This document shows positions 8,401 through 54,715 of a stretch of 64,000 nt of DNA, piece by piece. Origin of the DNA: Rhizophagus irregularis (taxonomy: Eukaryota); NCBI RefSeq assembly GCF_026210795.1, contig NC_089434.1:3658001-3722000 (forward strand), written 5' to 3'. A model generated the notes under the pieces. It worked only from the letters and a program-made list of their open reading frames with translations. It was not told the DNA's origin and did not search any database. How positions within the stretch are numbered: the first letter of the stretch is position 1; every line of letters begins with the position of its first letter. A program made the position numbers and the translations under genes.

Positions 8401-8578
8401 GAAAAAACTGAACGGGGAAAGTAAAATTCATGAGGTTTATATATATGCAAAAGCGCGTGAAAACCAGAGTGTAGTACTTAATTATCAACATCCAATCAGC
8501 AATTGCCCCATTTAGATTAAATGAAGTAATAAAAAAAATAGACAGTTTAACAGTATTTTCATTCTTATTCTGCCAAAA

Positions 8579-29590: not shown

Positions 29591-30752
29591 TATTATTAGC
29601 GCTAAACCGGCTATACTAATTTTCTCCCCTAGTTCCATTGATTCTGCGGGTCCGATTAATCAACATCTGGAATTTTTTGATTTGTAATCATTTGTAATAA
29701 TCCCGGACCCATCATTACATGGAATCCGAGCTATCATATGACCTATATGACTTGATTTGTCATAAGTCATTTGTCATTTGCCAATGACTTTGTCATAAGA
29801 TTCTTAATTCCGACCGACATTTATAAATTTGGCCAGAATTATTGTTATTAGATTGGATAAAATTTTAAATAGACTTTATTATTATCAAAAATAACTATTT
29901 TTCTTTACTTTCTATTCATTTATTAATTAACTTTACAGCGCTAAATTTTGGATCCCCTCCATCCATCATAATAAAAGCTTTTCACAGTTTCTCTCCCAAT
30001 CTTTTTTCCAGTGAGTGAGTTGGTGAATTTCGCATCTCACTGTTTTAAATACATAATCCATAGTATCCCCTTCCTCTTTATTTGAATTAATAACTTCCTT
30101 AAAACGAATACTAATTTCAATCGGACGATGGATAGCTACTGGTACTTCCACGTGATCAGTTTGAAGCTTTGGATTATTAGTTAGCCATAATCTCGGTCTG
30201 AAGTTTGCATGACTTCATTTCGGAGTAATGCTAGTTCAGCCTGTATTGATGTACTAACTACTAACTTTTTCGTGGCACTGAATTCAGATTTTATTCTTCC
30301 AAAATCATTATGGCATGCTTCTTAGAAATTATTTGTGGTCATTGACGTCACCATTATCTGCCATAGCAGCATCACGTGAACTAGTCATCACGTGAATTGA
30401 ATTTAGCAAATTTACTATTAATTTCATTTTTTTTTAGATAATAACGCTTGATATTTTTCATAATGTCAGTTATAGAGATGGGAAGTAGCTCATCGGTTCA
30501 ACTCCGGCCCAATAGAGCCGTTAAACTGACTTGGAGCGGCTCAGTCTAAACCGACTTAAACCGACTTGAACTATACTTGCCGCCCATTTAAAATCCCATC
30601 CCCTCCCCTCCTCTCCCCTCCCCTCCCATCCCATATCCCATCCCATCCCAAATCCCAATCCCAAATCCCATCCCATCCCAAATCCCAAATACTTGTGTAA
30701 CATTTCTCCAATTGGCCAATTATCACGTGACGTTACACAAACTTCCAAAAAA

Positions 30753-31167
30753 GGAGGTCGTCTAAAGCGGGGGCAAATCACGTGATTCGGTGTAATTTTA
30801 ATTAGATTAATTTTTTATAAAGAAAGATTAATAGAAACTTTAAAATCATAATATAAGCGTATTTTTATCTGCTTTGCAAGTTTACTTAAGGAAAAAAAGT
30901 GGATTATGAATATTGTTTTTGACTTTACATATGAATGAACAAAACTTTGCCGATCATATCCAAAAATGGATAACGAAATTGAAAAAGTCAAATAAATCAA
31001 AAACAGCATTCAAAACCCTACTCTGCGCTCTAAGTAAACTTGCAGAGCAGGCAAAAATGCATTTAGAATGTGTGTTTAGAATGGTTGAATATATGGTGAA
31101 AAGTTTTATTTTATGAAAACAATTTTTTTCGAAGTCACGTGATTTGCCCCTGCTTTAGACGACCTCC
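30753..31167. mobile_element. MITE nested in the hAT element
   Basis: About 33-bp TIR GGAGGTCGTCTAAAGC(G/A)GGGGCAAATCACGTGA. The flanking ccaaaaaagg is duplicated; the exact TSD/TIR boundary is ambiguous. Confidence 0.8.
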
Positions 31168-31312
31168 AAAAAAGGAAATTTTGCCTCCCGCAAAAAATGG
31201 GCAGATTTGGTTTCACAAGTATTCCAAAAAAGGAAATTTCTATGCCGATCACATAATTCCGGCCGTAATGTTTTAGTTTTCGAAGTCTAATGTTAATTCA
31301 GGTCAGAATTTA

Positions 31313-32013
31313 GTTTAAATCCTTATCTTACATACCCAATTTTTAAGAGATTTACCGATCAGATTTTAATGAAATTTATATCATTGGATTTGTCTCGATG
31401 CAAGGAATTTAATGGCAGTGAAATTATATTCCCAACATTAATATTGAATAAGTTATTATAAAAAATGTATTTTATAATATATATTATTAAATAACATGTA
31501 TAAAGCAAGCAATAATTGGTTACTTTTAATATAAAAAGTTTTTAAAATATATTTATTCAATTTATTATTTTATATTTTTTATTACAATTTAACTTTGAAT
31601 TAACTTAAACCTATCTATTAATTCATCAAAAAAAGTTTGATTATTTATTTCTAATATATATAATTTGATAGATATTATTATTATTGCATAAATATTTAAT
31701 AAAATAATATTTACAAACCAGGAATTAATTTACTGTTAATCTAAAAAAACAATATCAGCAGATATCATCAAAATTATTAATTCAAATAAAATAATCAATA
31801 TATTACTGAATACTAACTGCTAACATGTTACTTTCAAATAATATATAGTATAAAAATACATTTTTTATAATAAATCAGTCAATATTAATTTTAGAAATAT
31901 GATTTCACTACCATTTAATTCCTTGCATCAAGACGAATCCAAAGATATAAATTTCATTAAAATCTGATCAGTAAATCTCTTAAAAATTGGGTTTGTAGGA
32001 TAAGGATTTAAAC
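31313..32013. mobile_element. Long-TIR (about 150 bp) foldback/MITE nested in the hAT element
   Basis: gtttaaatccttatc...ccgatcagattttaatgaaatttatatc...gatgcaaggaatt at the left end is mirrored as its reverse complement at about 31860-32013. Confidence 0.8.
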
Positions 32014-34594
32014 CTTTATAATTTGTAATTCCGGCCGGAGTTAAAATATAAACTTCGTAAATCTGTTCGGGATCTTAATTTTGCTCATATTCTGGTAATG
32101 GATGCAATGCTGGCCAGAATTATATGATCGGCGTAAAAATTTCCTTTTTTGGAATACTTGTGAAACCAAAATCTCTCAATTTTTGCGGGAAGCAAAATTT
32201 CCTTTTTTGGAAATTTGTGTAACGTCACGTGATAATTGACCAATGAGATTATTTGGGATAAGGGATGGGACAGGGACGATGATTTTTTGCGGCGGTATAA
32301 AGTAAATTTTGTGTGTGATAAAAGTAAATTTTGTGAAATTTTGTGATTTGGCCAGAATTATGCAAGGTTGGCCAACATTACGATTCGTAAATTCTGGCCA
32401 AATTTAGTGTCTGCCGGAATTATAATAATTTCAAATCCTAAATCAGGCCAAAAACTTGAAAATTATCAACATTTTATAGCCAAATTTTGTGATTTTCTGT
32501 GAAATTCTGTGATCACAAAAAATCATCGTCCCTGGGATGGGATAAGGGATATGGGATATGGGTGGGATTGGGATTTGGGATTGGGATGGGATTTTGGCAA
32601 ATGGGAGGGGATTTTGGCAAAAGGGATGGGATATGGGATGGGATGGGATAGGGGATTCTCCTATCCCATTTAATATGGGTGGCAAGTATAACTTGAACTG
32701 CTCAAACCGACTCAAACCAACTTGAGCGGTTCAAGCAGCTCAAACTGACTCAAACCAACTTGAGCGGTTCAAGCAGCTCAAACCGACTCAAGCGACTCAA
32801 ACCGACTTAAAGTGACTCAAACTAAGTTTTTTGTAACACTAACCGGCTTTAATAAATCCTTAATTCCGGCCGGAATTAAGTGATCGGCACGGGGGTTTCC
32901 TTTTTCGGAATACAGTACAACATGATTTTTCAAATTTTTCGCAGGTGACATTTTCCTTTTTTGGAAATTTGTGTAATGTAACGTGATAAAATGGTTCAAG
33001 TCGGTCAAGTCGGTTCAAAGTCGGTTCAAGTTTGTTCAAGTCGGTTTGAGTCGGTTTGAACCGAACCAAGCTGGGAACCATAAGCTGACTCCAAAACCAT
33101 ACTCGAGCTGCTCCTTTCTCAAGTTTTCCCATCTCTAGTCAGTTATCTTGCGTAAATGCACCGGAAAAAAAAAGATTCTTTATATTTTATTACTACTGCG
33201 CGTGGAAATGGGAATTTAAATTTAAAGAATTACTTTTTCATAATTGTGAAACTTCGTAGGGAGTATTTTCCGCATACAGTACTGTAATTATTGAAACAAC
33301 AAGGCGAGCACCAGCATTATGATCTTTAGCAATACTCAATTATAAAATATTTGAGAAAGTTCTCTTTTCAAACATGAACAAAATTATTTTAACTGATAAT
33401 TTTAAAAAAGAGCGTGTAATTTTGCACTTATTGTATTATTAACGGAATAAAGAAAAATTCAGTCTATGTGTATGTTGAAATTTGAAAAAATAAATGAAAC
33501 TACAATTTTTGCATGACTACACATAAACTTTTTTTTTAAGTGTATCGTGTATCAAAATTTTATTTAAGATTTCTTGATTTCTTGATTTAACGTTAAATAT
33601 TTGAGAAAAATTTTCGGTAACATGACATGATAAATTTTATTGGTCAGATTTATTTTGTACAACCTTTTCAGAGAAAAAATTTCACATTTTAAAAAAAGCA
33701 AATAAACATTTATTTGAATATTTCTCATGATTATTGTTTGTTTGTTTTTTTCTAGTAAAATAAGTTGAATATACAATTTAACAAATTTGACGTCAAATCT
33801 TTATATTGTTTAATTAATATTTATATAAGTTGTAATAAAAAAGATAATTTTTTTAATTATATTAAATAAAAAAGTCTTTTCAAAACTTGATAGTTTTACT
33901 CCTAAAAAATCTTTCAATATTATTTATTTTTAATAAAAAAATTATATTTTTATTTTCAAAACAAAGTAAATTACAATAAAATTAAAAAATAAATGTAATA
34001 TGTAAGCCACTTATAAGCCCCCCGGCTTATTTTAATTAATCATTAGTATCATAAGTATTTGTCATCAATAAACATATAATGTAAATCTAATGCATAATAA
34101 ACAAGATTTTTAAATTTTTGGTGCTTTTATGAACACAAGCCATAAACTTTTATCATGTGGTAATATAGAGATAATTGTGTAAAATAAGAATGTTTTTGCA
34201 GAAAATATTTAATTTTTTCATAAGAGATTTGAACGCGAACTTCTCCAGTTACAGAAAATCCTTGATTTTCATAATCATGTATTAATAGTACTAAAGCCAC
34301 TTATAAGCCACTATCCAATGTTTTGTCACCAGATACCATGATAATTAAATGAAAACTTTGTGTTTATATTTGATTAAGACAAACACAAAATATGGTTTCC
34401 ATAATCTTATATGAAATTATTTTTTTTTTTGAATACTACATATCATCTTTTACACTGTACCAATGGATGGAATGATACTCACCAATTCAATTTCGGTTAA
34501 TAAAGCTTTTGATATTGTGGCCGTACTTTATTAAATATTCTTCGATATAAAGTTGTTTCGTTAGAAATTTGACTTGGTATGTATTGGTTGTATA

Positions 34595-39130: not shown

Positions 39131-39592
39131 TTTTTTGCTTATTAAAATAGTTTAGAATAAAAATTGATTATAATTCGTTATTTCAGAATTTCTTGTCATT
39201 GATCGACAATCTTTATTTATTTATTTTATGTGAAGCTGGAAAGAGTATCACAGAGAACATATGACTCTCCATAGGAAGGTACTCGTCCTACATTTAATCT
39301 ATCATCCATTACTAGAACGGACCCTAACTTCTAATTATATAGACTATTCCTAAACCACGACCGATAAAGGAACAGGTAGCCAAAAAAAAGAAAAAACTAC
39401 CTATCAAGAATGAAACAAAGCTATATATGTATAGAAGAAGTGGCGAACTGCACATTATAATATAAACAAATAGTAGAATTAGAGGGAGAAGAATAATCAA
39501 TAAAATATTGATCGACAATCATCAAATATCATTTAAGAACGTTTGCGTGTCACGACTGTCACGTGAATATTATGATGATCAGATTAATACAG

Positions 39593-40235
39593 TGTAACAC
39601 CTGAGCCCATAGAGAATTATGTTTGCCACCTCAGGTATTAACAAAATGACTCTTTATTAATAATATAAATAAATACAATAATATGCTTGGTTTAATAACA
39701 TTAAATAACAAAACAAATTTCGTCTAATTTTTCTCCCTTTTCCAAAAGTTGATCTTCACGCCTTTTTATGTTTGTTTTTGTGTAACTAAATTCATAATCT
39801 CGATTCATGGATTTAAATTATTAAAGTATTTCCATTGTTTTAAAGTATTTCCATTATCTTAATTTTGTATCCATTTGATCATCATAAACTCCTGAATTAT
39901 GATTTATAATATTAACGCAGTGATCAACAAATTAATCACTTGACACCTCGGATCACTTGATTTCATCCAATTTAGTATCTTACGGATCTTCATTTATCCT
40001 TAAATCTCGTGACTAATAGTTTAAGGTCATCACGGACCAATTACCTCAATCCATGTGATTATTAGTTTAACGACTTCTCGGTCCAATTATCCTTGATTCT
40101 CATGACTAATAGTTTAACGACTTTTCGGTCCAATTAAAATAAAAATAAAAATAAGTTAAAATTTTATACACTAAGACTAAATGTAATACTGCGCCTCACA
40201 ATTAATAAATTTACTAGATATACTACGGCATTACA
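39593..40235 (-). repeat. 3' LTR (643 bp)
   Basis: TGTAACACC...GGCATTACA; I found no difference from 49963-50605 by eye. Confidence 0.97.
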
Positions 40236-40245
40236 ACTATCCCCC
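40236..40245 (-). other. Polypurine tract
   Basis: GGGGGATAGT immediately before the 3' LTR on the element's sense strand. Confidence 0.7.
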
Positions 40246-40278
40246 GCATAAAAATTTAATGCCCACATTAAATTTATT

Positions 40279-40340
40279 CTAAGAATCGAACTCGTGTCTC
40301 GAAGTGGTAGGTGCGAATTATACCACTAAATCAAACATGC
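40279..40340 (-). other. Degenerate tRNA-Gly-like sequence inside the retrotransposon 3' UTR
   Basis: Minus strand GCATGTT TG ATTT AGTGGTA TAAT T CGCAC CTACCAC TTCG AGAC ACGAG TTCGATT CTTAG is collinear with eukaryotic tRNA-Gly, with A-box-like TGATTTAGTGG and B-box-like GAGTTCGATTC. Stems are imperfect and there is no contiguous 3' acceptor strand. Confidence 0.65.
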
Positions 40341-40572
40341 ATTGTCACTTGACTCAGCTGCATTTTAAATATTCCTTTTTGCTGCGTCTACATCTGCGGT
40401 TTATCATGTGTTTGTTAAGTCTACGGTTTTCCTGTACCGGATTTCACTTCGGTCTTTCTTAGGAAATTTTCATTAGTTTTTCCTATTTTCGAAAATTATT
40501 TTTATGTCATGTGATTTTATTTCACATGATTATAAATTATCTTTATTTTTCTAAGTCCATTGATGATAGTTA

Positions 40573-42354
40573 TCATTTACTCATCGGTGTATGGTAAGTC
40601 TTTAATAATTCTCCATTTACAGGTATCTTCTTGATGACACCTTTAATATTTTTAATTCTATAAGCTCCATTCGGTAGTATTTCATGAATGTAAAATGGTC
40701 CCAACCATTTTGATTCTAATTTTCCCGATAGTTGTTGTGCTTTGGCTTTATCATAGAGTAGTATTTTATCTCCAATTCCAAAGGTGTGTTCTTTGATTAT
40801 TTTTCTGTCATGATACTCTTTTTGTTTTGTTTGAGATTTCAGTATTTGTTCTTTGGCTTCATGTCGGATTTTTGGTAGTTCTTCTAATAATCCAACTATT
40901 CTATCACTTAGGTTAATTTCTTTGATATTTTCATCCATTATTGTCCGTACATTTCTTCCGTATGTTAAATAAAATGGTCGAATTCTTGTTGAACTATGCT
41001 TTTTATTTCGGTAAGCAAATAATATGGGTGCTATCCTTTGATCCCAATCATCTTTGGTTGATAATTTTGCTAATGCTTGACCTAATGTTCGGTTGAATCT
41101 TTCAACAAGTCCGTTTGTCTCTGGATGATAACTTGTAGAAAAATTCCATTTAATTTTGAATTTTTCCATTAATTCCTTAATCATTTCATTATTGAAATGA
41201 CTTCCTCTATCACTCAATATTTTCATTGGACATCCATGTCTACAAATGATGTCTTCATAAATAAATTTTGATACTTCTTTGGCAGTTGCTTCTTTTACTG
41301 CTTTGGCTTCTGGCCATTTTGTAAAATAATCCATTGCTACTATGATGTATTTATTACCATTTGTTGTTGTGTTCAATGGTCCCACAAAGTCAATCCCGAT
41401 TTGATACCATGGTTCTACTACTTTAATTGGGTGTAATTCATTTTTCCCTTGTGGTTTTCCTCTTCTTTGACATTCATCACATGTCCTTACATATCTTTCA
41501 ACATCATTCAGCATATTTTCCCAATAATATTTATCTTTTAAATTATCATAAGTACTTTTGATTCCCATATGTGCCGATAATTCATGACTGTGAGCTAAAT
41601 ATAGTGCTCCCATCTTTTCAAAGTCTTCTATTATTCTGATGTTTTTACCATTTTTCTCAATATGCTTTTTACCATCAGTTACTCTGATGTTATCCTTAAT
41701 CTCAACATTTTTAACCTCTATTGGTGGTTTATCTCCATCTAATTCTATTACTTTATTATATACTCTTTCCCAATCTGTGTCATTATTCGATATTTTAATA
41801 TTAGCATATTTTTCTCCTTCGTAAATATCTTGACATTCTTTAAATGATTTCACCATCTCCATATATCTTTCTTCATCTAATAATGGATATGATGTTTTAT
41901 GTCCTTGATCCTTTTTCGAATATTCTCTACCTTTGTAATTTTCCCAACATTTTTCATTTTCTAAAAATATCACTATTGATTCATCAATTATCCTTTTGTT
42001 CCTAAATACTTCCTTTTCTAATAGGTGGTTCTCATATCTTGTTATGTATCCTCTGTCGAATGATGGTGTATGTTGATAAAAGTACTCACTATAGGGACTT
42101 TTATCTAATATTAACCAATCCTCATTATCATGTTCTTCCATTCTCCTGTTGATTTGTTCGACAACTTCCTTCCTGAATTCCCATTCTATACCTTTCTTTG
42201 GTATTTTATACTTATCATTGTCCTCTCTTCTCCTTTTAAAGGTGTTAAACCTCACACTTTGTCCTACTTTTTCAAATTCTTTTATAAGTTTATTTACAAT
42301 GAATGTTTTTCCAGTACCATCAACTCCACATATGATTATTATTTTAGGTCCCAT
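40573..42354 (-). CDS. Fusion ORF: thymidylate/dNMP-kinase-like P-loop domain (about aa 1-205) + Gypsy integrase (HHCC, DDE, GPF/Y)
   Basis: KIIIICGVDGTGKT (Walker A) and WLILDKSPYSEYFYQ (compare TMK DRxxxSxxAYQ). Then HSHELSAHMG...CDEC, GIDFVGP, ILSDRGSHF, HPETNGLVERFN and KWLGPF. Confidence 0.85.
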   Translation of the reverse strand: MGPKIIIICGVDGTGKTFIVNKLIKEFEKVGQSVRFNTFKRRREDNDKYKIPKKGIEWEFRKEVVEQINRRMEEHDNEDWLILDKSPYSEYFYQHTPSFDRGYITRYENHLLEKEVFRNKRIIDESIVIFLENEKCWENYKGREYSKKDQGHKTSYPLLDEERYMEMVKSFKECQDIYEGEKYANIKISNNDTDWERVYNKVIELDGDKPPIEVKNVEIKDNIRVTDGKKHIEKNGKNIRIIEDFEKMGALYLAHSHELSAHMGIKSTYDNLKDKYYWENMLNDVERYVRTCDECQRRGKPQGKNELHPIKVVEPWYQIGIDFVGPLNTTTNGNKYIIVAMDYFTKWPEAKAVKEATAKEVSKFIYEDIICRHGCPMKILSDRGSHFNNEMIKELMEKFKIKWNFSTSYHPETNGLVERFNRTLGQALAKLSTKDDWDQRIAPILFAYRNKKHSSTRIRPFYLTYGRNVRTIMDENIKEINLSDRIVGLLEELPKIRHEAKEQILKSQTKQKEYHDRKIIKEHTFGIGDKILLYDKAKAQQLSGKLESKWLGPFYIHEILPNGAYRIKNIKGVIKKIPVNGELLKTYHTPMSK

Positions 42355-42583
42355 TTTTACATAATTCTGATAATTCTAGCTTGTTTACTTTACTTAATAT
42401 CACCTCTATTTGTAATATTTCCTCTTGAGTTTCCAATATTAATGGTCTTTCTTCACTATCTTCAAAATTTTTGGCTTTGAATTTATAGTTATAATTTATC
42501 CTGTTTAATTCCTTTGTTATACCTTCTAAATTTTCGATTATATCCTTTATTTTATGATTTGTATTTCTTACCACTTGTTCCAT
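42344..42583 (-). CDS. Small hypothetical ORF (79 aa, helical/coiled-coil-like) between RNase H and kinase-integrase
   Basis: AAAATGG start context. Fills the gap after the RT stop and overlaps the next ORF by 11 nt. No recognisable motif. Confidence 0.5.
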   Translation of the reverse strand: MEQVVRNTNHKIKDIIENLEGITKELNRINYNYKFKAKNFEDSEERPLILETQEEILQIEVILSKVNKLELSELCKNGT

Positions 42584-42618
42584 TTTATTTTTGAAAAGTA
42601 ACTCTTTTACCCCTCTAT

Positions 42619-44100
42619 TTATATTATTCTTGATAAGGCATCTGCATTTTTATTTTCTTTTCCTGGTCTATGGGTTATTTCAAAATCATACTGTTCCAAT
42701 TCCATGACCCATCTTGATCTCTTTCCTTTTGGTACTTTTGCAGTCATTAATCCCTTCAAAGCTGCATGGTCTGTTACTACCTCAAATTTTCTATTGATCA
42801 AGTATTTATGGAAATGTTGTATTCCCCATACAATTGCATAACATTCTTGTTCGGTTATTGGCCATCTTTGTTCTGTCCTGTTTAAACTTTTACTGGCATA
42901 TTCTATTACATATTCTTGACCTTTATCATCTTTTTGAGCTAACACTGCCCCTAATCCTATTCCTGAAGCATCTGTGATTAATATAAATTTCCTTAACCAA
43001 TCTGGTTGTCTTAACACTGGTTCTTCGGTTAATTTCCTTTTTAATATTTCTAATGCTTCATGTTGTTTGATGCCCCATTCAAACTTTTCATCTTTTCTCA
43101 ATAAAGATGTTATTGGTTTTACTATTTTTGAAAAATCTTTAATAAATTTTCTATAATACGTACATAACCCCAATATTGACCTTACACCTTTTATATTTAT
43201 AGGTGCTGTTAATTTTTGTATCTTTTCAACCTTTCCTGGACTTGGTTTTAATCCATTTTTACCAACTACATGTCCTAAAAATTCTATTTCTGTTTTTCCA
43301 AATATACATTTCTTTAACTTTAGTATTAAACTGGCTTCCTTTAATTTTTCTAACACTAACTTTATGTGTTTTAGGTGGTCTTCAAAATTTTCCGAATATA
43401 TCATTATATCATCAATGTATACTATCACAAATTCATTTAGGTACTCCTTTAATACTTTATCCATTAACCTTTGAAAACTTGCAGGTGCATTTGTTAACCC
43501 AAATGGCATGACATTATATTCATATAATCCTGCTGAGCATATGAATGCTGTTTTCTCAATATCTTCCTCAGCCATTTCTATCTGATTAAACCCTGATGCT
43601 AAATCTAGACTGGTAAACCATTTTCCTGAACTTATCCTTTCTAATTGTTCATCAATCCTTGGTAATGGATATGCATCTGTTATTGTAACTTTATTTAATT
43701 TTCTATAATCGATGCAAAACCTATAATTTCCAGACTTTTTCCCTGCTAAAGTCACTGGTGAAGACCATGGACTTCTAGATTCTCTAATTTTTCCCAATTT
43801 TAACATCTCGTCAACCTCTTTTCTGATGAATTTACCTTTTTCATCATTTTCTTTGTACCTCTTTTGGGCTATTGGTTCAGTACCCCCTTTTAATCTGATT
43901 TCATGTTTTACTAGGTTTGTCCTATTATATTTTTCACCATCGTACTCAAATATATCCTTATATTTTTCTACTAATACTTTTAATTTACCTTTTTGTTCAT
44001 TGGTTATGTCCCCTACTTTAAATTTTTCAGTAAATTTTTCATGGTCACTTTTGTGCTTCTTTATCGTCTCTTCAGTATCATTCTGACCAAGACTTATACT
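42619..44100 (-). CDS. Reverse transcriptase + RNase H (frame open from 44100; first Met at 43806)
   Basis: RFCIDYRKLN, LDLASGF, MPFGLTNAP, YIDD, TDAS, VTDH and NADALSR. The upstream open frame encodes the usual pre-RT segment (KHEIRL...PIAQKRY...EVDEML). Confidence 0.95.
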   Translation of the reverse strand, partial: SISLGQNDTEETIKKHKSDHEKFTEKFKVGDITNEQKGKLKVLVEKYKDIFEYDGEKYNRTNLVKHEIRLKGGTEPIAQKRYKENDEKGKFIRKEVDEMLKLGKIRESRSPWSSPVTLAGKKSGNYRFCIDYRKLNKVTITDAYPLPRIDEQLERISSGKWFTSLDLASGFNQIEMAEEDIEKTAFICSAGLYEYNVMPFGLTNAPASFQRLMDKVLKEYLNEFVIVYIDDIMIYSENFEDHLKHIKLVLEKLKEASLILKLKKCIFGKTEIEFLGHVVGKNGLKPSPGKVEKIQKLTAPINIKGVRSILGLCTYYRKFIKDFSKIVKPITSLLRKDEKFEWGIKQHEALEILKRKLTEEPVLRQPDWLRKFILITDASGIGLGAVLAQKDDKGQEYVIEYASKSLNRTEQRWPITEQECYAIVWGIQHFHKYLINRKFEVVTDHAALKGLMTAKVPKGKRSRWVMELEQYDFEITHRPGKENKNADALSRII

Positions 44101-44621
44101 TTAAAATTTTCATCTTCCTGACCTTCATGGTCATCTTCATATATGTTATACAATTCATCCTGGTATAATTCTTCTAATATTTCCTCTTCATCAAATGTTT
44201 CTTCAAACCCTTTAATGGTCCTTTGTGTGTATTTTACTGGTATATCCATAGTTTCATCATTCATTCTAATTATTATTGTTTTATCTGTGTAATCTATATT
44301 TGCTTTGAACATATCTAATACTCCATTTCCTAACACAATTTCGTTTTTTCCTGAATCAATTACTTCAACCTTAATGGGTATTTCTTTATCCCCAAATTGT
44401 ATGTATATTGTCGTGGTACCCCTAGATGCTAATTTATCCTCATTTATCATCACACATCTTACTGTACTCGGTTCCTCAATTTTTAGGTCCATTTCATCCA
44501 TTATCTGACTAGTTATTACATTTACTGCTGCTCCTGTATCAAACATTACGTCCTTTAATTCTTGGTTTATTATTAATTTACCTCTTAATGCAGTTAAATG
44601 CTCTGCTTCAATGTTGTTCAT
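44094..44621 (-). CDS. Retropepsin-like aspartic protease, in frame with gag across a single TGA
   Basis: VMFDTGAAVNVI catalytic motif and IVLGNGVL. Confidence 0.9.
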   Translation of the reverse strand: MNNIEAEHLTALRGKLIINQELKDVMFDTGAAVNVITSQIMDEMDLKIEEPSTVRCVMINEDKLASRGTTTIYIQFGDKEIPIKVEVIDSGKNEIVLGNGVLDMFKANIDYTDKTIIIRMNDETMDIPVKYTQRTIKGFEETFDEEEILEELYQDELYNIYEDDHEGQEDENFKV

Positions 44622-44633
44622 TGATTCTTGTAG

Positions 44634-47600
44634 TCAATCTGTTTGTGGATACCTTCTCATACCATCATAATATATTTTTCTTTGTTCTGGGCTCATATCT
44701 ATAATTTGTGAAAAAGTTGCATTTGCTCTGGTACTTTTCATATCCTCTAATACGTTATATTTTGGTATATTTCTTTGAAATGCGCTTGTCCTATGAATAC
44801 CTTCAACACGTTCATTTTTACATTGTTTTGCATAGTGACCTCTTTGTCCACAATTTCCACATGTATTATTATTTCTCCTTGCTTCTTGTGCTTTCCTCAG
44901 ACTTTCATCAGTGAATCCCCTTTTTGGTAATGCTGCTGCCCTTTCCTCTTGGCTTGCATATTTATTATTTCTTCTTCGTGTTTGTTCTTGGTCAATTTCC
45001 ATATCTATATCTCGATCACTTGACCTATTTTTTATGTTACTTCTCGTTTGTCTTTCACCTATATAAAAATCTTGATCAACATGGTTAAATGTTACATCAT
45101 TATCTTGATAATACGGGTCGTCATAACTATATCCTTGATCATAATTATCCTGATAATCCTGACTATCATAATCATATTGGTCATATTGGTCATTATAATT
45201 ATCATATTCCACTACATTGAATCCTCGATTATTGTTTTGGTGGTTTGGTGGTCTGTTATAGTTATTTGGTCTTCCATTATAGTTATTTGATCTTCTATTA
45301 TAATTTTGATTATTTGGTCTTCCATAGTTTCTTTGACCATTATTTACCCTACATTCATTTGCATAATGTCCTGGTTGTTTACAATTATAACATGCTCGAG
45401 GTGGTGGTCCTTGTCTATTATTATTGTTTGGTGGTCTCTTTTGCCCTCCAAGTTGATTTACTAGTTTTACCTCTAATTTTTTAAACATGTCGGCAAGGTC
45501 ATCCTCATAATTTTTCTCCAATGGTTTTTCAAATATATTCTTTGGTTTGTCATCTTGTATATCGATTCCTTTTCTTTGGGTACTAACTGATATACCATGT
45601 GTCTTTCTTATTAATTCATTAGTAGCTTCCTCTTCTCTTCTTGCTGTATTCACTGCATCATTTAAATTTGCTGGGTTTTGTCTTCTGACTTGATATCCCA
45701 ATGTTGGTGTTAATCCTTCGATATAATTATCCACTTGTAATTCATCATCTAATGCATGGCCTCTGGTAGCTATCCTTAATATTTGTCTAAACCTTATCGT
45801 ATATGCCTCAACATTTTCATTTACTCCTTGTGTTATTTTCCTTAATTCTAACATTTTCCTTTTTCTAACATCTTCCCTGGTAAATCTTTGTTTAATCCTA
45901 TGTTTTAAATCATTATCATTATCGTTATCTTGCCAATTTACCAAATGACCATTGTTTGCTTCCTTCTTTTCATTATACCATTGTGCTGCTGCACCTTTCA
46001 AACAGGTAGCTGCCATTGCTGCTTGTCTAGCTCCATTTACTCCTGCTGCTTTTCCTATAGCAGTAAATGCTGTTTCAAATTGTCTTACCCAATCGTTTAC
46101 GTCTTCTTCTTCCCTTCCATAAAATTGTGGCATACTAATTATTCCTCCAGCTACATTTCCTGCATCCTCAATTGCATTTGCTAATGGGTTGGCTGCGACT
46201 AATCCAGCCCAATTACCTCCTATATCATGTCCCGTTGCTGCTAGTAAAGCCGCTCTAAAATCTTCCCTTACTTCAGCTCTTGTTGCTCCCATAATTATTG
46301 GTACTATTGGTAGAATTGGTGGTATCGGTGGTGTTAAAGGTGTTTCAAATAAATTTTCTATATTATAATCAGATATTTCGCTTTTATTTTCAGAATTTGA
46401 TTCTGAACTTTCACTTGAGTCAAAACCAGGTCTATTTATAATGTTTTCTTCATAAGGTTCTTCAAAATTTTCATTGTTATCAGTATCATTTGGATTTAAA
46501 ATTTCTCCGTCTTTTCCAGATCCATCTGATTCTTTTTCAGATCCATCAGATTTTTCATTATCAGATTCATTTCCACTACTTTCACTATCCTCAATTCCAG
46601 CTTGCTGTTTTAGAAATTTATCTAATATTCGCCTTAAATTTTTCTCCATTTCATTTTTATTTCCTTGGAATATTTCAATAAATTCTTGATCCAATATTTC
46701 TCCATCAGTATATCCCATACTGATTAACCTCAATAACTCTCCATTAGTTATTCCTATTTTATTATCATCACATACTTGTTTCAATCTTTTAACCCTGATA
46801 TCAATTTCATTTTCGTCATTCTCACAATCCCTACACTTGGTTTTTCCTTCGTCAAATTTATTGTTCATCCATCTTATTCCACATTCATCACAAAATGTGG
46901 TATTTTCATTTATCCATTCATATAATTTTATCCTTAATTCTTTGTCATTCGTATTAATTTCCTGGAAATATTTTTCCATAAATTCCGTTGTTAATATTAT
47001 ACTATTGCTTATCCTGAATTCTCTTATTCTCCCTATTTCTGACACATTTAATTCGTATCCTAGTTTTTCTAAGTCATCCTTTAATTCTAATAACTCTTTT
47101 TGTTCACAATTTTTACATTGTCCAATGTCTGCTATCATATCAGGTAACTTTCTATTTCTACAATTTCCACATCTTAATGTTTCTTTTGTTAACCATTCAT
47201 TTATTTCATCCTTCAATTTTTCATCACTTAATCCCATTAATTCGGAAAATGTACCTAAAAAGTCCTCTGTTAATATCAATTCTATCCTTATCCTTAGGTC
47301 CCACATTCTTTGTATATCTTTGTCAGTGAACCCTCCACCCATTTCTTCAATTTTTCTTTTTAATGATTCTACTGTCCATTCGACATCATCCTCTATTTTT
47401 ATTTCATAATGTATACTACCATCACTGTCCTCCAATTCATAACTTTCAGGACTAGCACTTTCTGGGTCTTCAGGTTCCCTTGTAAATTGTTTGGTGTCAA
47501 TAAATCTTTGTAACACTTTCCGTATCAATCTTTCCCATTCTTGTTGTTTTGATTCTTCCTTTCCTAATGAGTTTCTGTAAACAATTGTATTCGTTAAATC

Positions 47601-48218
47601 AATTACTTCTCTTATTTTTTTAGTTATGGTTTCTTCCATGTATAATAATTTCCTGAATATTACTATCGTTTCTGGTGTCGCATGGATTACTTCCACCCCA
47701 AATTCTAATATTGAACCGTACCATTCCCAAAATTTTTGAAATCTGTTTTCAATATCCCAATCTTCCAAAATATATCCATGTTCCATTATTTCTGGACATC
47801 CAATTAACCGGTCAAATACTTCATTTTCCAAGTTTCCTTCAATACAATCCCTTACAATTACTACAATTATTATTCTCAATCCTTTTTCCTTCATTTTTGG
47901 TTGTTGTCTGTACCTTATTGATTCAATTATTCTATCTACTATATTCCTACATTTTCCCTTATGTATTGTATCCTCCCTTTCTCTATTGTCCATACTTAAT
48001 AAATTCAATAATTCTTTATGTGTTACATTATTGTACATTAGTATTGTATCCTCAAATTTAAATAAAGCATCCCAAAATTTCTTGAATGCCGCTGATACTT
48101 CTCTTTCTATTGGATTACATATTTCACATGCTAAACATTCCTCTGGTTCTATCACTCCTAGGTCATGTTCTTGTTTATGGTTTATATATTCAGCGTTCCA
48201 AACATGGTACCATTCCAT
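44634..48218 (-). CDS. Large Gag-containing ORF (1194 aa) with about 640-aa N-terminal extension, capsid-like domain and two CCHC knuckles
   Basis: PQFYGREEEDVNDWVRQFE...CLKGAAAQWY...ITQGVNENVEAYTIRF (retrotransposon gag). Knuckles CYNCKQPGHYANEC and CGNCGQRGHYAKQC. Confidence 0.92.
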   Translation of the reverse strand: MEWYHVWNAEYINHKQEHDLGVIEPEECLACEICNPIEREVSAAFKKFWDALFKFEDTILMYNNVTHKELLNLLSMDNREREDTIHKGKCRNIVDRIIESIRYRQQPKMKEKGLRIIIVVIVRDCIEGNLENEVFDRLIGCPEIMEHGYILEDWDIENRFQKFWEWYGSILEFGVEVIHATPETIVIFRKLLYMEETITKKIREVIDLTNTIVYRNSLGKEESKQQEWERLIRKVLQRFIDTKQFTREPEDPESASPESYELEDSDGSIHYEIKIEDDVEWTVESLKRKIEEMGGGFTDKDIQRMWDLRIRIELILTEDFLGTFSELMGLSDEKLKDEINEWLTKETLRCGNCRNRKLPDMIADIGQCKNCEQKELLELKDDLEKLGYELNVSEIGRIREFRISNSIILTTEFMEKYFQEINTNDKELRIKLYEWINENTTFCDECGIRWMNNKFDEGKTKCRDCENDENEIDIRVKRLKQVCDDNKIGITNGELLRLISMGYTDGEILDQEFIEIFQGNKNEMEKNLRRILDKFLKQQAGIEDSESSGNESDNEKSDGSEKESDGSGKDGEILNPNDTDNNENFEEPYEENIINRPGFDSSESSESNSENKSEISDYNIENLFETPLTPPIPPILPIVPIIMGATRAEVREDFRAALLAATGHDIGGNWAGLVAANPLANAIEDAGNVAGGIISMPQFYGREEEDVNDWVRQFETAFTAIGKAAGVNGARQAAMAATCLKGAAAQWYNEKKEANNGHLVNWQDNDNDNDLKHRIKQRFTREDVRKRKMLELRKITQGVNENVEAYTIRFRQILRIATRGHALDDELQVDNYIEGLTPTLGYQVRRQNPANLNDAVNTARREEEATNELIRKTHGISVSTQRKGIDIQDDKPKNIFEKPLEKNYEDDLADMFKKLEVKLVNQLGGQKRPPNNNNRQGPPPRACYNCKQPGHYANECRVNNGQRNYGRPNNQNYNRRSNNYNGRPNNYNRPPNHQNNNRGFNVVEYDNYNDQYDQYDYDSQDYQDNYDQGYSYDDPYYQDNDVTFNHVDQDFYIGERQTRSNIKNRSSDRDIDMEIDQEQTRRRNNKYASQEERAAALPKRGFTDESLRKAQEARRNNNTCGNCGQRGHYAKQCKNERVEGIHRTSAFQRNIPKYNVLEDMKSTRANATFSQIIDMSPEQRKIYYDGMRRYPQTD

Positions 48219-48384
48219 TTTTAATAAAATTCTCTAAAAATTTTCACGTCTTTTACTTTTTATCCTTCTTTTATATTTTATTTGACCTATACTGGGCTTG
48301 CCTTTACCTCATTTGTTCATTACTGAGTATGGTAGTTTACAGGTTTGTACAAATAATTTTATATTTTTCCTTAAAATTCCCAAC

Positions 48385-48912
48385 CTAAGGTTGGAGTGTG
48401 AATCCATATTTGATTTGTCCGATTATTTGTTGTATTTCCGGATTTGTCAATTTTATAATAGTCGTTACAAATGTTTCCTTTACTCTATATATCTTATCTT
48501 GACCAATTTCAGTAAAAAGTTTATATATTTTTATAGCTCCTTGCATCCTTTTCCTTAATGCTTCCTTTTTCTTTCGTTTTTCATCAGTACTTTCATTAAC
48601 TATAAATTCCATCATTTCATCATATAATTCTTCTCTAGCTGTCTGGTCTGGCTTTGTTTGATTTATTCTTGCTTTAATTTCTCGTTCAAAAATTTGTCCA
48701 ATATTGTACCATATTAAGATGTTTTTACCATTTGTATTTCCAAGACTGATGTATCTTTCTACTAATTTTTCAACATCATGAATTTCTACATTTTGTATTT
48801 CTGGTATCAATAGGTCTTCCACATTTACCGGTGTCAACAATTCATTTATAAATCTTTCCACTTTATTCTCACTTTTGGTCCTTTTCACATGTTCTCTATT
48901 ATCACAGGTCAA
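48385..48912 (-). CDS. Accessory ORF upstream of gag (function unknown); probably starts at ATG 49067 across a -1 frameshift at an A10 run
   Basis: 175-aa protein-like open frame. An upstream AAAATGG-initiated frame of about 50 codons joins it if one A is added at about 48920-48929, giving KKKKKRCLTCD. Confidence 0.7.
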   Translation of the reverse strand: MTCDNREHVKRTKSENKVERFINELLTPVNVEDLLIPEIQNVEIHDVEKLVERYISLGNTNGKNILIWYNIGQIFEREIKARINQTKPDQTAREELYDEMMEFIVNESTDEKRKKKEALRKRMQGAIKIYKLFTEIGQDKIYRVKETFVTTIIKLTNPEIQQIIGQIKYGFTLQP

Positions 48913-49181
48913 ACATCTCTTTTTTTTTTCTTGGGTGGTCTAACATCATAGATGGTCTTTAGACTGATGGCCTTATTATCTTCATTATAAATTTTTAATT
49001 TAATTCCTTTTCCTTTACACAAATATTTTTCTGAATCCTCTTTTGTTAAATTGATTTTGTATTCCATTTTATGGGTGAGAGATCGAATTCCTCACCTTTT
49101 TATAACTTTCCTTGAATATATTTGTCCAGCAAATATTATTTTTAATAAAAATTTTTAATCATGATTTTTCTTGGGTACCCT

Positions 49182-49370
49182 CACACAGAATTGTTTTTGA
49201 AAGTTCACACAGAACTATTCTCAATTGATTACACAGAATACCTCAATTGAGTTCACACAGAAAAAGCTCACACAGAACTATTCTCAATTGATCACACAGA
49301 AAACCTCAATTGAGTTCACACAGAATTATTCTCAATTGATCACACAGAAAACCTCAATTGAGTTCACAGA
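49182..49370. repeat. Tandem repeats in the retroelement 5' UTR
   Basis: Repeated cacacagaa(c/t)tattctcaattgat / cacagaaaacctcaattgagtt units. Confidence 0.85.
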
Positions 49371-49942
49371 ATTACCCTACCATCGTATTTATAGTGTCGG
49401 TTTTTGGGTACACTTTTTATCCTTAACTTAACCTCAATTATTTATAAAAATTATTTTTAATCCTTAATTCATGGAACTTATTTACAATATTCTATTAAAA
49501 CCCCTTCTAACTTGATTAGCCTCGCATTTCCCTTGATAATCAATTACTACCATACATATTTGGTTCATATGTATGAAAATTATTATAATAATAATTTTTC
49601 ATTGACTTATCAGCCGGTGGTCAAGTTAGATCAAAAATTTAGTTTTCAACATTATTTCTTCATACATTTATGGTCATACTTACCCAAATTAATACTTTTT
49701 ACATTGGTAACCATTATTTTCACGTATCCTTTAAAATATTTGACTTTATTTTATTAAAATTTAACATCAATACACCTTAAATTCTTTCCAACCAAGACTT
49801 AGAACTTTTAATTTTATAATTCCTTAACTTCGTCGATCCTTTATTTGTAACTTCTAATGATCACGTGGGGGTGATCATTTTCTTTTCTCAGAGATCCTGT
49901 ACTTATAACCTGTAGTGATCATGTGAGGATGATCACCTTCCT

Positions 49943-49960
49943 TTCTCGGAGCATGCACCA
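49943..49960 (-). other. Primer-binding site, 18 nt, probably tRNA-Gly
   Basis: TGGTGCATGCTCCGAGAA lies 2 nt inside the 5' LTR. Its complement TT-CTCGG-AGCATGC-A-CCA parses as T-loop end, T-stem, acceptor stem, discriminator and CCA. The ...ATGCACCA ending is typical of eukaryotic tRNA-Gly. Confidence 0.8.
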
Positions 49961-49962
49961 CT

Positions 49963-50605
49963 TGTAACACCTGAGCCCATAGAGAATTATGTTTGCCACC
50001 TCAGGTATTAACAAAATGACTCTTTATTAATAATATAAATAAATACAATAATATGCTTGGTTTAATAACATTAAATAACAAAACAAATTTCGTCTAATTT
50101 TTCTCCCTTTTCCAAAAGTTGATCTTCACGCCTTTTTATGTTTGTTTTTGTGTAACTAAATTCATAATCTCGATTCATGGATTTAAATTATTAAAGTATT
50201 TCCATTGTTTTAAAGTATTTCCATTATCTTAATTTTGTATCCATTTGATCATCATAAACTCCTGAATTATGATTTATAATATTAACGCAGTGATCAACAA
50301 ATTAATCACTTGACACCTCGGATCACTTGATTTCATCCAATTTAGTATCTTACGGATCTTCATTTATCCTTAAATCTCGTGACTAATAGTTTAAGGTCAT
50401 CACGGACCAATTACCTCAATCCATGTGATTATTAGTTTAACGACTTCTCGGTCCAATTATCCTTGATTCTCATGACTAATAGTTTAACGACTTTTCGGTC
50501 CAATTAAAATAAAAATAAAAATAAGTTAAAATTTTATACACTAAGACTAAATGTAATACTGCGCCTCACAATTAATAAATTTACTAGATATACTACGGCA
50601 TTACA
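49963..50605 (-). repeat. 5' LTR (643 bp)
   Basis: Direct repeat of 39593-40235, adjacent to the PBS. Confidence 0.97.
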
Positions 50606-50710
50606 ACAGTACGTACAGTACGATCACTGTCAAACTAAATAAATATGTTGTGTAAATTGTGGGCGTTTCAGCCGTTTCATCTTCGCTTTTTTTTTTGAAA
50701 TAATAAAAAA

Positions 50711-53700
50711 ATGTCACAAATTGATATAGATTGTGAAAAATGTGGCGACACATACACATATGTAGAAGATGGATGGTGTAGACCATGTCAAATAGATAAT
50801 TTTAAAAAAAATCTTACAAATTGGACAAGCGGAAATGAAATCATTGATAATTTAATTCAAAAAAAAAATCAAGATATTTATGGACCAAATGATATAATAT
50901 TTGAATGGATACCATACAATCAATTGAATGATATTAAAGAAATAAACAATGTTTTATATTTGGCAATATGGAAAGATGGTCCATTATACTATTGTCATCA
51001 CAAAAAGGAATATGTAAGGAAATCTAAGAATGAAAAAATCATTATTTTCAGTTTGTATGATTTACCAATTATTACCAATGAATTTTATGATAAGGTATGA
51101 AATGATTTTATTTAATCCAAAATTTTAATATATAAATATATATTTAATTGAAATATTTTTTTTTATTATTTATAATAGGTTAAATCATATTTTTCAGAAT
51201 ATTATTATTTATCAATACATGGAATATCTCAAAATCCAAATACAAAAGAATATTTTATGGTTTTTCAAGATGATCATTGTGAAAAATGTGGTAAAAAATA
51301 TACAACAGTGAAGTACAAATGGTGTGAATCATGTCAAATAAATTATTTAGAGAAAAATTTTACAAATTGGACTAGTGGAAATGAAATAGTTGATAATTTT
51401 ATTCAAGAATTTCAATTAAAAATTAATGATTACAATGATATAATAATCGAATGGATACCATATGACCAGCTTAATAATATTAAAGAAATAAGAAAAGATG
51501 GTTTTAGTACAATATATTCAACAATATGGGAGGACGGTCCTTTATATTATTGTCTTTATAAAAAAGAATATAAAAGAAAGTTAGGAAAAAAACAAGTTGC
51601 TTTAAAATATATGCATAATTCACAAAATATTACCAACGAATTATTAAGCAAGGTATGAAATTTAATATAAATATTTTTTTTTATATTGTTTTTTATACTA
51701 ATTAATTTTCAAATAAAGGGACGTAATAGTAATGCTCTTCCGATATATGGAATATCACAAAATCCAGATACAAAAGATTATATAATAGTTATTCAAGATG
51801 AATATTGTGAAAAATGTGGTGAAGAATATACAAACATATTTTATAAATGGTGTAAACCATGTCAAATAAGCAATTTAAAGGAAAATTTTATAAATTGGAC
51901 TAGTGGAAATGAAAAAGTCGATAATTTCATTCAAGATAGGCAACTAAATCATATTGATCGCTACAATGATCCAATACTTGAATGGATATCATACGAACAG
52001 TTTGACAATATTAAAGAAATAAGCAAAAATGGTATTATTACAATATGTACAGCAATATGGAAAAGTAGTCCATTAAATTATGATATAAATAAAAAAATAT
52101 ATAAGAGAGATTTTATAAATCAAAATAAAAAAGTTACTTTAATATGTTATAATACACAAGATATTATTGAATTTTTAAGCAAGGTAAGAAAGTTTCTTAT
52201 AAATTTCCTTTATATTATATTATTTTTTAGTAATGTTTTTTTCTTATTTTTAATAGGATAATTCAAAGTTATATAGGATTGATAATATATATGGATTAAC
52301 TCAAAATCTAGATACAAAAGATTATATAATGTTTCTTAAAGATAAATATTGTGAAAAATGTGGTGAAAAATATACAAATAAATTTTATAAATGGTGTAAA
52401 CCATGTGAAATAAATTATCTAAAGAAAAATTTTACAAATTGGACAAGTGGAAATGAAAAAGTCAATAATTTTATTCAAGAATTTCAACTAAAAATTAATC
52501 GTTATAATAATATAATAGTTGAATGGATACCATACAATCAGTTTGATAATATTAAAGAAATAGGTAAAAATGATTTATTTACAATATATTCAGCAATATG
52601 GAAAAATGGTCAGTTGATTTATGATAAAAATGAAAGAATATATAAAAGAAATTTAAAAAATCAGAATGAAATAGTTACTTTAAAATCATTTAATTCACAA
52701 AATATTACTGAAGAATTTTTTAATAAGGTATAAAATTTTTCTTTATTAATTTATTTTATTTTAATTATTTTGGTAATATTTTATTTTATTTTATTAGAGT
52801 AACAACTCTGTATACAGTAATAAAATATATGGAGTATCACAAAATCCAAATAATCCAAATACAAAAAATTATATTATAGTTATAAAAGAGATATATTGTG
52901 AAAATTGTGGTAAAGAATATACAGATACATTTCACAAATGGTGTAAACCATGTCAAATAAGCAATTTGAAGAAAAATTTTACAAATTGGACCAGCAAGAA
53001 TGAAAAAATTGATAAATTTATTCAAGAAATGCAATTAAAAAATTTTCATTTTACAAATATAATAGTTGAATGGATACCATATGAACAGTTTAATAATATT
53101 AAAAAAATAAACAAAGATGATTATATTACAATATGCTCAGCAATATGGAAAAATGGTCAGTTAAATTATGATCAATATAAAAAAATATATCAAAGAAATT
53201 TAAAAAATAAGAATCAAAAAATTACTTTAAAATTTTACAACTTGCAAGATAATGCTGATAAATTTTTTAATGAGGTATAAGATTCAGTTCTTTAATAAAT
53301 TATTTTATTTTATTTTCTAATGAAAATATTTTTCTAATAGGCTAATGATAATAAAATAATATATGGAATATCTCAAAATCCAGATACAAAAGATTATATT
53401 ATGGTTATTGAAAATATATATTGTGAAAAATGTAGTGAAATTTTGCATGATTCTTGGTGTAAATCATGTCAATTAGGTTATTTAAAGAAAAATTCTATAA
53501 ATTGGACCAGTGGAAATAAAAAAATCGATGAACTTATTCAAGAAATGCAATTAAAAATTAATGATAAATCTGATACAATATTTGAGTGGATACCACACAA
53601 TCAGTTTAATAAGATTGAAGAAATAGGTAAGGGAGGATTTGCCATAGTTTATTCAGCAATATGGAAGGACGGTCCATTATTTTACAAAGAAAAATTTAGA

Positions 53701-54715
53701 AGAATGAGTGGTAATAGTAGTAAAGTCGCTTTAAAATATTTGCTCAATTCATCACAAAATATTATTGATGAATTTTTAAATGAGGTAAGAAATTATATAT
53801 ATATATATATATACTGTATATAATTAAATTTTATTTTATATAAAATAATAAATTTTTTACACATTTTAATAGATTAGAGCATATTCTCTTAATTATAATG
53901 AAAATATTATCCGAATATATGGATTGTCTCAAGAACCAAATACAAAAGATTATATTATAGTTCTAGGCTATGCACGCGGAGGAAATTTATATTATCAGTT
54001 AAATAAAAATTATGATAAATTTAATTGGACGCATAAATTAGATTTAACATTGAATATTATTACAGGACTTATAAATATTCATCAAAAACAAATGGTTCAT
54101 CGTGATTTTCATGTAGGAAATTTATTAGTTGAACAAGAAACTGTATCCTTATTTAATAAAATATTTATTTCAGATATGGGATTATGTGGAGAAGTCAGTA
54201 ATATAAAAGATGAAAGCAAAATTTATGGAGTTATGCCTTATGTAGCCCCTGAAGTGTTAAAAGGTAAACCTTATACTCAAGCAGCAGATATATACAGTCT
54301 TGGCATGATTATGTATTTTATAGCAACTGGAAAACAACCTTTTGCCAATTGTGCACATGATGAGTTTTTAGTATTAAATATATGCAATGGAATTAGACCT
54401 GAAATAAACGAGTCAGAAATACCAAAAATTTACATTGATATAATGAAAAAGTGTTGGGATTCAAATCCAAATAATAGACCAAGAGCTATTGACTTAGAAA
54501 AATCAATTAGATCATTTTATTTTGGTATTGATATCTTTAATGATGAGGAAATTAAAAAGCAATTTGAAAAAGCAGAAGAATATAGAAAAGTAAATCTTTT
54601 ATCTATTAAAAGTAATCAATCAACTACTCATCCAGAAGCTCATTACACATCTCGATTACTTAATCCATTTACAAAAAATCTTTATTCAATGGAAGTTATT
54701 GACTTCACAAAGTAA
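50711..54715 (+). CDS. TKL-like protein kinase with six tandem Cys-motif/N-lobe modules. Exons 50711-51094, 51179-51652, 51719-52183, 52257-52727, 52798-53274, 53341-53784, 53873-about 54711; possibly further small exons to about 55120
   Basis: Six copies of CEKC...WCxxC...WTSGNxxIDxFIQ...EWIPY...AIWK. The last has GKGGFAIVY and VALK, followed by HRDFHVGN, DMG, YVAPE and DIYSLG. Phase-0 GT..AG introns. AA|GTAAGT at the apparent stop and downstream NLHSKEQDELEIPE suggest a spliced C-terminal tail. Confidence 0.9.

Follow-up and report, generated by a model that had tools for sequence, protein, structure and literature searches.

A thymidylate-kinase-like domain as a selected cargo in the pol region of a Rhizophagus Ty3/Gypsy retrotransposon clade

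The 64,000-nucleotide stretch of Rhizophagus irregularis DNA analysed here (contig NC_089434.1, positions 3,658,001 to 3,722,000; hereafter the window) contains a Ty3/Gypsy retrotransposon in which the integrase is preceded, within one open reading frame, by a domain of predicted nucleoside/nucleotide-kinase fold. This domain is a genuine cargo of a fungal Gypsy clade, kept under selection and apparently undescribed, and extends the theme of dUTPase capture with an odd active site.

The ORF runs on the minus strand from an ATG at 42354 to a stop codon ending at 40573 and encodes 593 aa with no internal stop. The kinase domain occupies aa 1-209 (41728-42354), as delimited by alignment, an AlphaFold model and fold searches, with IIIICGVDGTGKT as the P-loop at aa 5-17 and ILDKSPYSEYFYQ at aa 82-94. 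Its landmarks are the P-loop core G10-T17 (GVDGTGKT), a K40-R43 patch, F60-R61, the motif DKSPYxExxYQ at 84-94 (DKSPYSEYFYQ in the window kinase) and R143. A linker and the integrase follow in frame (40573-41727), with Pfam matches to Integrase_H2C2 at aa 251-299 (E 1.6e-17) and rve at aa 318-411 (E 9e-11), the HHCC residues H257, H262, C292 and C295, the triad D322, D382 and E418, and GPF at 552. The whole protein is 98-99% identical to proteins of R. irregularis DAOM 197198. A preliminary description of the locus, made from the sequence, had proposed an N-terminal P-loop domain and a complete Gypsy integrase in one uninterrupted 593-aa frame within identical LTRs; the ORF, the Pfam matches and the LTR alignment confirm this arrangement. 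The N-terminal domain also goes beyond a chance P-loop, with a pLDDT of 88, TMPK and dNK as top folds over residues 3-208, and motifs invariant in 24/24 relatives.

The element spans 39593-50605 on the minus strand (~11.0 kb). Its LTRs, each 643 bp with TG...CA ends (5' LTR, 49963-50605; 3' LTR, 39593-40235), are identical, with 0 mismatches over 645 aligned bases, and are flanked by the 4-bp target-site duplication ACAG (39589-39592 and 50606-50609), so the insertion is recent. A putative primer-binding site, TGGTGCATG (49952-49960, minus strand), which we take to be of the tRNA-Gly type, and a putative polypurine tract adjoining the 3' LTR (40236-40250, minus strand) were also located. Just before this tract, a segment with tRNA A-box/B-box-like motifs begins with GCATG (40275-40340, minus strand); it was rejected as a tRNA, with no ARAGORN or Rfam call and a folding z of about -0.6. 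The 5' leader has tandem 24/63-nt repeats (49176-49373). All ORFs of the element lie on the minus strand. Two accessory ORFs (48385-49067; 52 aa from the ATG at 49067 and 184 aa from stop to stop), for which a Pfam scan returned no family above cut-off, lie 5' of a 1194-aa gag (44634-48218) with Pfam matches to Retrotrans_gag and two zinc knuckles; its long N-terminal extension (~700 aa) has CxxC pairs and no Pfam match. The aspartic protease (44094-44633) shares the gag frame behind a TGA stop followed by CTA (44631-44636) and would be reached by readthrough; TGA-CTA is a context known from stop-codon readthrough. RT-RNase H (42619-44100) has its own frame, -1 relative to the protease, with no ATG near its start, and the closest solved RT is that of Ty3 (E 1.5e-97). 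A slippery-looking A-AAT-TTT behind the protease (44070-44125) would shift into a TAA. Then come a 79-aa ORF (42344-42583), whose stop overlaps the kinase ATG, and the kinase-integrase ORF.

The element thus has the TG...CA LTRs and target-site duplication, the order gag, PR, RT, RH, IN, the Ty3-type RT and the HHCC, D-D35-E and GPF motifs of a Ty3/Gypsy retrotransposon. A pol encoded as one polyprotein ORF, the usual though not universal Ty3/Gypsy layout, is lacking: PR, RT-RH, the 79-aa ORF and kinase-IN each occupy a separate frame, a split that the preliminary description had overlooked, and the integrase is likewise a separate ORF in three related loci (L003, L005 and L007). The insertion lies just upstream of about six repeats of 520-560 bp, behind which comes a protein-kinase exon (50687-54715, plus strand). 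Elsewhere in the window, an SRP receptor alpha-type exon precedes an ORF that matches a Hom_end-associated Hint domain (E 2e-17) and may represent an intein (9555-11217, plus strand), and long inverted repeats nested at 30538-33067 (up to 161 nt, 91%) are likely DNA transposon remnants.

Four ORFs of the element start with aaaaATGG (49067, 48218, 42583 and 42354, minus strand), a pattern also seen in loci L002 and L006, and ORFs started in this way often overlap the preceding stop, as in the case of the kinase-integrase and the 79-aa ORF. This layout suggests that the LTR element may be translated polycistronically by reinitiation. Contigs from two of four runs skip 228 nt of the 79-aa ORF, between two aaaaATGG starts; we interpret this joint (42354-42583), which is flanked by two AAAATGG repeats, as a deletion variant and reject splicing, and the sparse raw RNA reads showed no GT-AG splice joint. 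The dominant contigs in three of the four runs have one extra base at 42582, which would disrupt any frameshift out of RNase H; we infer that the kinase-integrase is probably translated from a start of its own. Three raw RNA runs (24-30% read), from strains that may differ from that of the window, gave a depth of 0 over 41744-42117, and the depth elsewhere in the coding part was at most about 1, save for a 33-nt match to an unrelated transcript.

On its own terms, the preliminary description would have been refuted by a non-kinase NTPase, or by a domain confined to this copy and evolving neutrally; neither was borne out. The domain is multi-copy: at least nine near-identical full-length copies lie on separate R. 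irregularis contigs, and the protein cluster of the window kinase has 47 members, nine of the 15 listed being 593 aa long and lying on contigs of nine different lengths. Relatives at 55-65% identity are spread over related Gypsy subfamilies; those with a named host come from R. irregularis and R. clarus, the others from metagenome or read assemblies, and JGI automatic names already label several members 'thymidylate kinase'. In a metagenome scan, the matches listed comprised at least 598 stretches, at least 26 loci, at least six of them clear family members. Nor is the domain neutral. Codon models of the window kinase and five loci (six sequences; L006 was excluded as saturated) gave ω values of 0.039 (GY) and 0.072 (MG), with lnL -2529.3 when ω was free versus -2722.7 at ω = 1 (2ΔlnL about 387). 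The corresponding values were 0.10-0.16 for RNase H and 0.02-0.05 for integrase (four sequences each). Among kinase pairs, the best resolved were L003/L005 (ω 0.094) and L004/L007 (ω 0.154), deep pairs being near saturation. The kinase, at ω 0.04-0.07, is therefore under purifying selection. Kinase and RT-RH distances were correlated across 18 elements (Mantel rho 0.46, 1 of 2000 permutations); P0016 and P0023 switch group between the kinase tree and the RT-RH tree, suggesting either recombination or chimeric gene models.

The partner of the kinase varies. Among 33 matches of 326-1038 aa, 26 also matched RNase H families, four integrase families, one NUDIX and two no family, and BLAST placed the kinase behind RNase H in most of the long matches; 30 shorter matches include stand-alone kinase ORFs of 220-265 aa. 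In raw DNA, RNase H and kinase share one frame in L002 and L004, a free kinase ORF is followed by a separate integrase ORF in L003 and L005, and the kinase of L007, whose start is outside the sequence seen, stops ahead of a separate integrase. A contiguous kinase-integrase fusion was demonstrated only in the subfamily of the window element; P0011 and P0031, considered as further independent integrase fusions, were rejected because they are NCBI gene models without parts of the kinase. The sister of the window kinase in the kinase tree is a stand-alone ORF (support 99/93). With relatives located behind RNase H or encoded as separate ORFs, the link to integrase is incidental, and the initial emphasis on the integrase fusion as an essential feature is not borne out.

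An AlphaFold model of the kinase domain was built with 24 sequences (pLDDT 88, pTM 0.85). Its best VIA-align matches were S. aureus TMPK (Z 16.1, rmsd 3.2, 182 aligned), human dGK (Z 16.0, rmsd 3.2, 195 aligned) and Giardia dAK (Z 15.8, rmsd 3.4, 196 aligned), so that TMPK and dNK folds are tied within 1 Z unit; the top Foldseek rows were the same two families, and the viral matches were also TMK/dNK, at 10-20% identity and with no clear winner. NadR (Z 14.9), AbmG (Z 14.9), 2plr (Z 14.4), a complex I subunit (Z 13.7) and PPK2 (Z 12.8) ranked lower, and polynucleotide kinases were absent from the top 50 VIA-align rows. Identity to solved kinases is 8-20%. A profile-profile comparison with a TMK-like alignment gave a probability of 99% and E 4e-18, the P-loops coinciding and DKSPY..YQ aligning with DRY..YQ. 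All 24 family members match PF02223 weakly, the cut-offs of PF02223 (20.1 versus 27 bits) and TIGR00041 (20.8 versus 83.25 bits) were missed, PF01712 was absent among the Pfam matches of the window domain (its L006 relative scored 22 against a cut-off of 27 bits), and the best Pfam score of the window domain was that of AAA_28, at 27.1 bits. An FtsY identity offered by sequence searches was rejected, the alignments mainly covering the P-loop. Collectively, Foldseek and VIA-align support a predicted nucleoside/nucleotide-kinase fold rather than a generic NTPase. To this extent the thymidylate-kinase-like label given earlier holds, but dTMP specificity is not supported, with Lys at the DRX arginine and the family cut-offs missed.

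A general-base Glu after strand 2 and a GNI-type P-loop are hallmarks of dNKs, and both are absent from the kinase family. After strand 2 the family has FKRRR, versus REP in TMPKs and EP in dNKs, and in the columns where the dNK-type P0130 reads EGNIG and EPV it reads GVDG and FKRR. The TMPK-type P-loop aspartate, D12, is present in at least 90% of the 24 members; this residue is said to be unique to TMPKs, and a Gly after it to mark type II (PMC3169407, in part; for motif nomenclature see PMC8679000, in part). Judged by its motif, the P-loop is the bacterial/viral type II form and not the eukaryotic type I form; with Gly after the Asp as in type II enzymes, the kinase looks unlike a eukaryotic type I gene. 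The position of the DRX arginine is Lys (K85) in 24/24 relatives, and in 18/18 sequences of another alignment, versus Arg in 9/9 TMK-like controls. DK for DR, first remarked on in the window copy, is thus a family-wide trait. The DRX arginine has been described as essential, and its replacement accounts for an inactive PPK3 subunit (PMC12995831, in part).

Nine basic residues (K40, R41, R43, R61, R71, K85, R101, K120 and R143) are invariant in the near family, and several of them vary among NUDIX-fused members. G15/K16, D84, R143 and Y93 are invariant or nearly so in 24-30 sequences, down to about 25% identity. R143, invariant in 24/24, lies in helix 136-149 of the model, where it is a candidate for the catalytic LID arginine of type II enzymes. 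R61 lies 23 residues before D84 and E90 six after it, and by this motif spacing they presumably correspond to R104 and D133 in dCK; the base-binding residues look more dCK-like. Mutating R104 and D133 of dCK broadens its specificity to thymidine and deoxyuridine (PMC3851323, in part). A homodimer prediction of the kinase scored 0.00 and gave no verdict either way.

A profile search of 1.84 billion proteins returned 86 matches, 27 of them with E below 1e-30, and ordinary TMK/dNK proteins appeared only at E about 1e-5 to 1e-3. The nearest relatives outside the family are NUDIX-kinase fusions, roughly 25-41% identical in the kinase. Locus L006 (13.9 kb, 29% GC) carries a NUDIX-kinase ORF at 6650-7846, with a divergent RT-RH upstream on the same strand; no integrase was found on this locus. 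The NUDIX-kinase ORF is followed by a Mrr-like nuclease (7821-8573) in a tightly packed string of accessory ORFs, both upstream of a zinc-knuckle gag-like ORF (9538-11331). Positions 1-11745 of L006 are possibly an undescribed complex retroelement. Compared with the window element, the L006 kinase is 41% identical and its RT-RH 30%, which suggests that, if the RT belongs to the same element, the kinase module may have moved between lineages. The best solved sequence match of the NUDIX partner is NUDT15 (E 2e-5), with which Foldseek agrees; VIA-align puts other NUDIX proteins ahead of it. Some stand-alone kinases have an N-terminal stretch resembling the NUDIX C-terminal helix: in what is a weak test, 5/23 extensions scored clearly above shuffles, at most 4 of 200 shuffles equalling the score. 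The root position of the kinase tree is ambiguous, and the tree is silent on NUDIX loss versus gain. P0212 is an unrelated-looking canonical NUDIX-TMK fusion with DRY, so the pairing also exists outside the family.

The proposal that the domain was captured from a DNA virus or bacterium fared unevenly. The type II P-loop agrees with it, but no donor emerged from phage, viral or prokaryotic searches: tblastn of phages with the kinase gave no match, and kinase patterns, which being short miss distant relatives, occurred in 0/102 viral contigs, 1/9 candidate stretches and 0/115 prokaryotic genome contigs. The sole viral match was a distant phage TMK-like gene at 25% identity.

In our preferred reading, to which we give an even chance, the domain of this Rhizophagus Ty3/Gypsy clade is an ATP-dependent deoxynucleotide salvage kinase that raises the nucleotide supply for reverse transcription. 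It would be translated from its own aaaaATGG start in the polycistronic layout and would enter the particle with whichever pol protein carries it (RT-RH or integrase), or as a free protein. Since the P-loop carries the TMPK Asp, and a basic patch stands in for the dNK general-base Glu, the acceptor would be a deoxynucleoside monophosphate. R61 and E90 presumably take the places of R104 and D133 in dCK, so that C, A or G, and not T, may be the base. K85 would take over the role of the DRX arginine as phosphate clamp. The domain may derive from a pairing of NUDIX and kinase, with the NUDT15-like hydrolase supplying dNMPs for the kinase to recycle. The phosphorylated dNMPs would feed cDNA synthesis. 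Packaging in particles, and a benefit in dNTP-poor spores or hyphae, are conjecture.

It is also conceivable, though unlikely, that the domain binds nucleotides without catalysis, or with slow turnover, and serves as a sensor, scaffold or nucleic-acid/NLS adaptor in particle assembly, translation reinitiation or integrase import. The replaced DRX arginine, the conserved FKRRR patch and the shared fold of the complex I accessory subunit (Z 13.7), whose role we take to be non-catalytic, would all fit, but G15/K16, D84, R143 and Y93 persist to about 25% identity, the partner protein changes freely, and the lysine, itself invariant, fits a catalytic substitution better than decay. A kinase active on another small substrate, be it nicotinamide riboside or a related nucleoside, a nucleotide that is damaged or modified, or the 5' ends of nucleic acids, seems rather improbable: NadR and AbmG (both Z 14.9), the top Pfam score of AAA_28 (27.1 bits) and a NUDIX partnership that points to pool editing speak for it, but no base-modifying enzyme was found among the eight element ORFs or 12 L006 ORFs scanned. 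Arbuscular mycorrhizal fungi are rich in polyP. That the TMPK fold was exapted, in the manner of PPK2/PPK3, into a nucleotide kinase driven by polyphosphate, which would use these stores for (d)NTPs, is a reading that we consider very unlikely. The structure 2plr (Z 14.4) is ST1543, which by its locus number we equate with the PPK3 homologue STK_15430; together with PPK2 (Z 12.8) and the nine invariant basic residues of the near family, it favours this reading, as does the finding that proteins of TMPK fold named thymidylate kinases proved to be PPK3 (PMC12995831, in part). However, TMPK and dNK score 1.5-3 Z higher, F60-R61, E90 and Y93 fit a nucleoside pocket, and several basic residues vary in NUDIX-fused members. 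That the domain is neutral cargo, or that it reflects an error of gene prediction or assembly in a single copy, has a negligible probability; one of the nine full-length copies does carry G15E in its P-loop, but the frames are contiguous in raw DNA, and the reading is refuted by an ω far below 1 and by at least nine copies on distinct contigs. Returning to the salvage kinase, its boldest extension is a long shot: a new lysine-clamp nucleotide kinase family would stem from a pool-editing NUDIX-kinase module, would have been exchanged among distant retroelement lineages, and would make dNTP precursors in the particle, possibly from polyP and not ATP.

The open-access literature searched yielded no report linking a thymidylate kinase domain to retrotransposons, although the TE libraries and tables of PMC11075540 and PMC8647823 could list the domain. 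In the accessible parts of these two R. irregularis TE surveys 'kinase' means host protein kinases, and the word is absent from those of PMC3248453 and PMC2864245. It is believed that retroelements rely on the dNTP pools of their hosts, and dUTPase is the nucleotide-enzyme cargo of fungal LTR elements in the cited papers, as far as their accessible parts go. That a kinase is selected as strongly as RNase H would mean that retrotransposition in this symbiont is limited by nucleotide supply. The family also offers a natural change from Arg to Lys in a motif that has been called essential in the superfamily, and its kinase is a marker of a recently active transposon family in a model arbuscular mycorrhizal fungus.

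Among known systems, dUTPase-bearing fungal Gypsy elements (PosPlaTy3 of Postia; Phanerochaete and Tuber), in which dUTPase has been proposed to aid replication in non-dividing cells (PMC2864245, in part), likewise carry a nucleotide-metabolism domain in pol at positions varying between families; in Rhizophagus, by contrast, the cargo is a P-loop kinase between RNase H and integrase, and pol is split. Baculovirus tmk-dut fusions (pelu112 and op031), which speed viral DNA replication, pair a kinase with a (d)NTP pyrophosphatase, as the deeper relatives of the Rhizophagus family pair kinase and NUDIX hydrolase; they differ in belonging to a DNA virus, in having dUTPase and not NUDIX, and in a TMK reported with all catalytic residues, versus DK here (PMC4895240, in part). 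Type II TMPKs (S. aureus 4dwj and M. tuberculosis 1g3u) share the fold (Z 16.1 and 13.8), GxDGxGKT with Asp then Gly, and DxxxxSxxxYQ, whereas the Rhizophagus kinase is only 12-17% identical to them, has Lys for the DRX Arg, FKRRR for REP and an acidic residue at DRX+6, and falls below their cut-offs. The dNKs (human dGK 2ocp, Giardia dAK 8puu, Mycoplasma dAK 2jas and dCK) are similar in fold (Z 14.3-16.0), and DKS resembles their ERS/DRS; unlike them, the family has the TMPK Asp and not GNI in its P-loop and lacks the EP glutamate after strand 2. PPK3 (Saci_2019/STK_15430) is likewise a TMPK fold mis-annotated as thymidylate kinase with conserved basic residues, but it is an archaeal heterotetramer encoded in a polyP operon, and its catalytic subunit keeps DRX (PMC12995831, in part).
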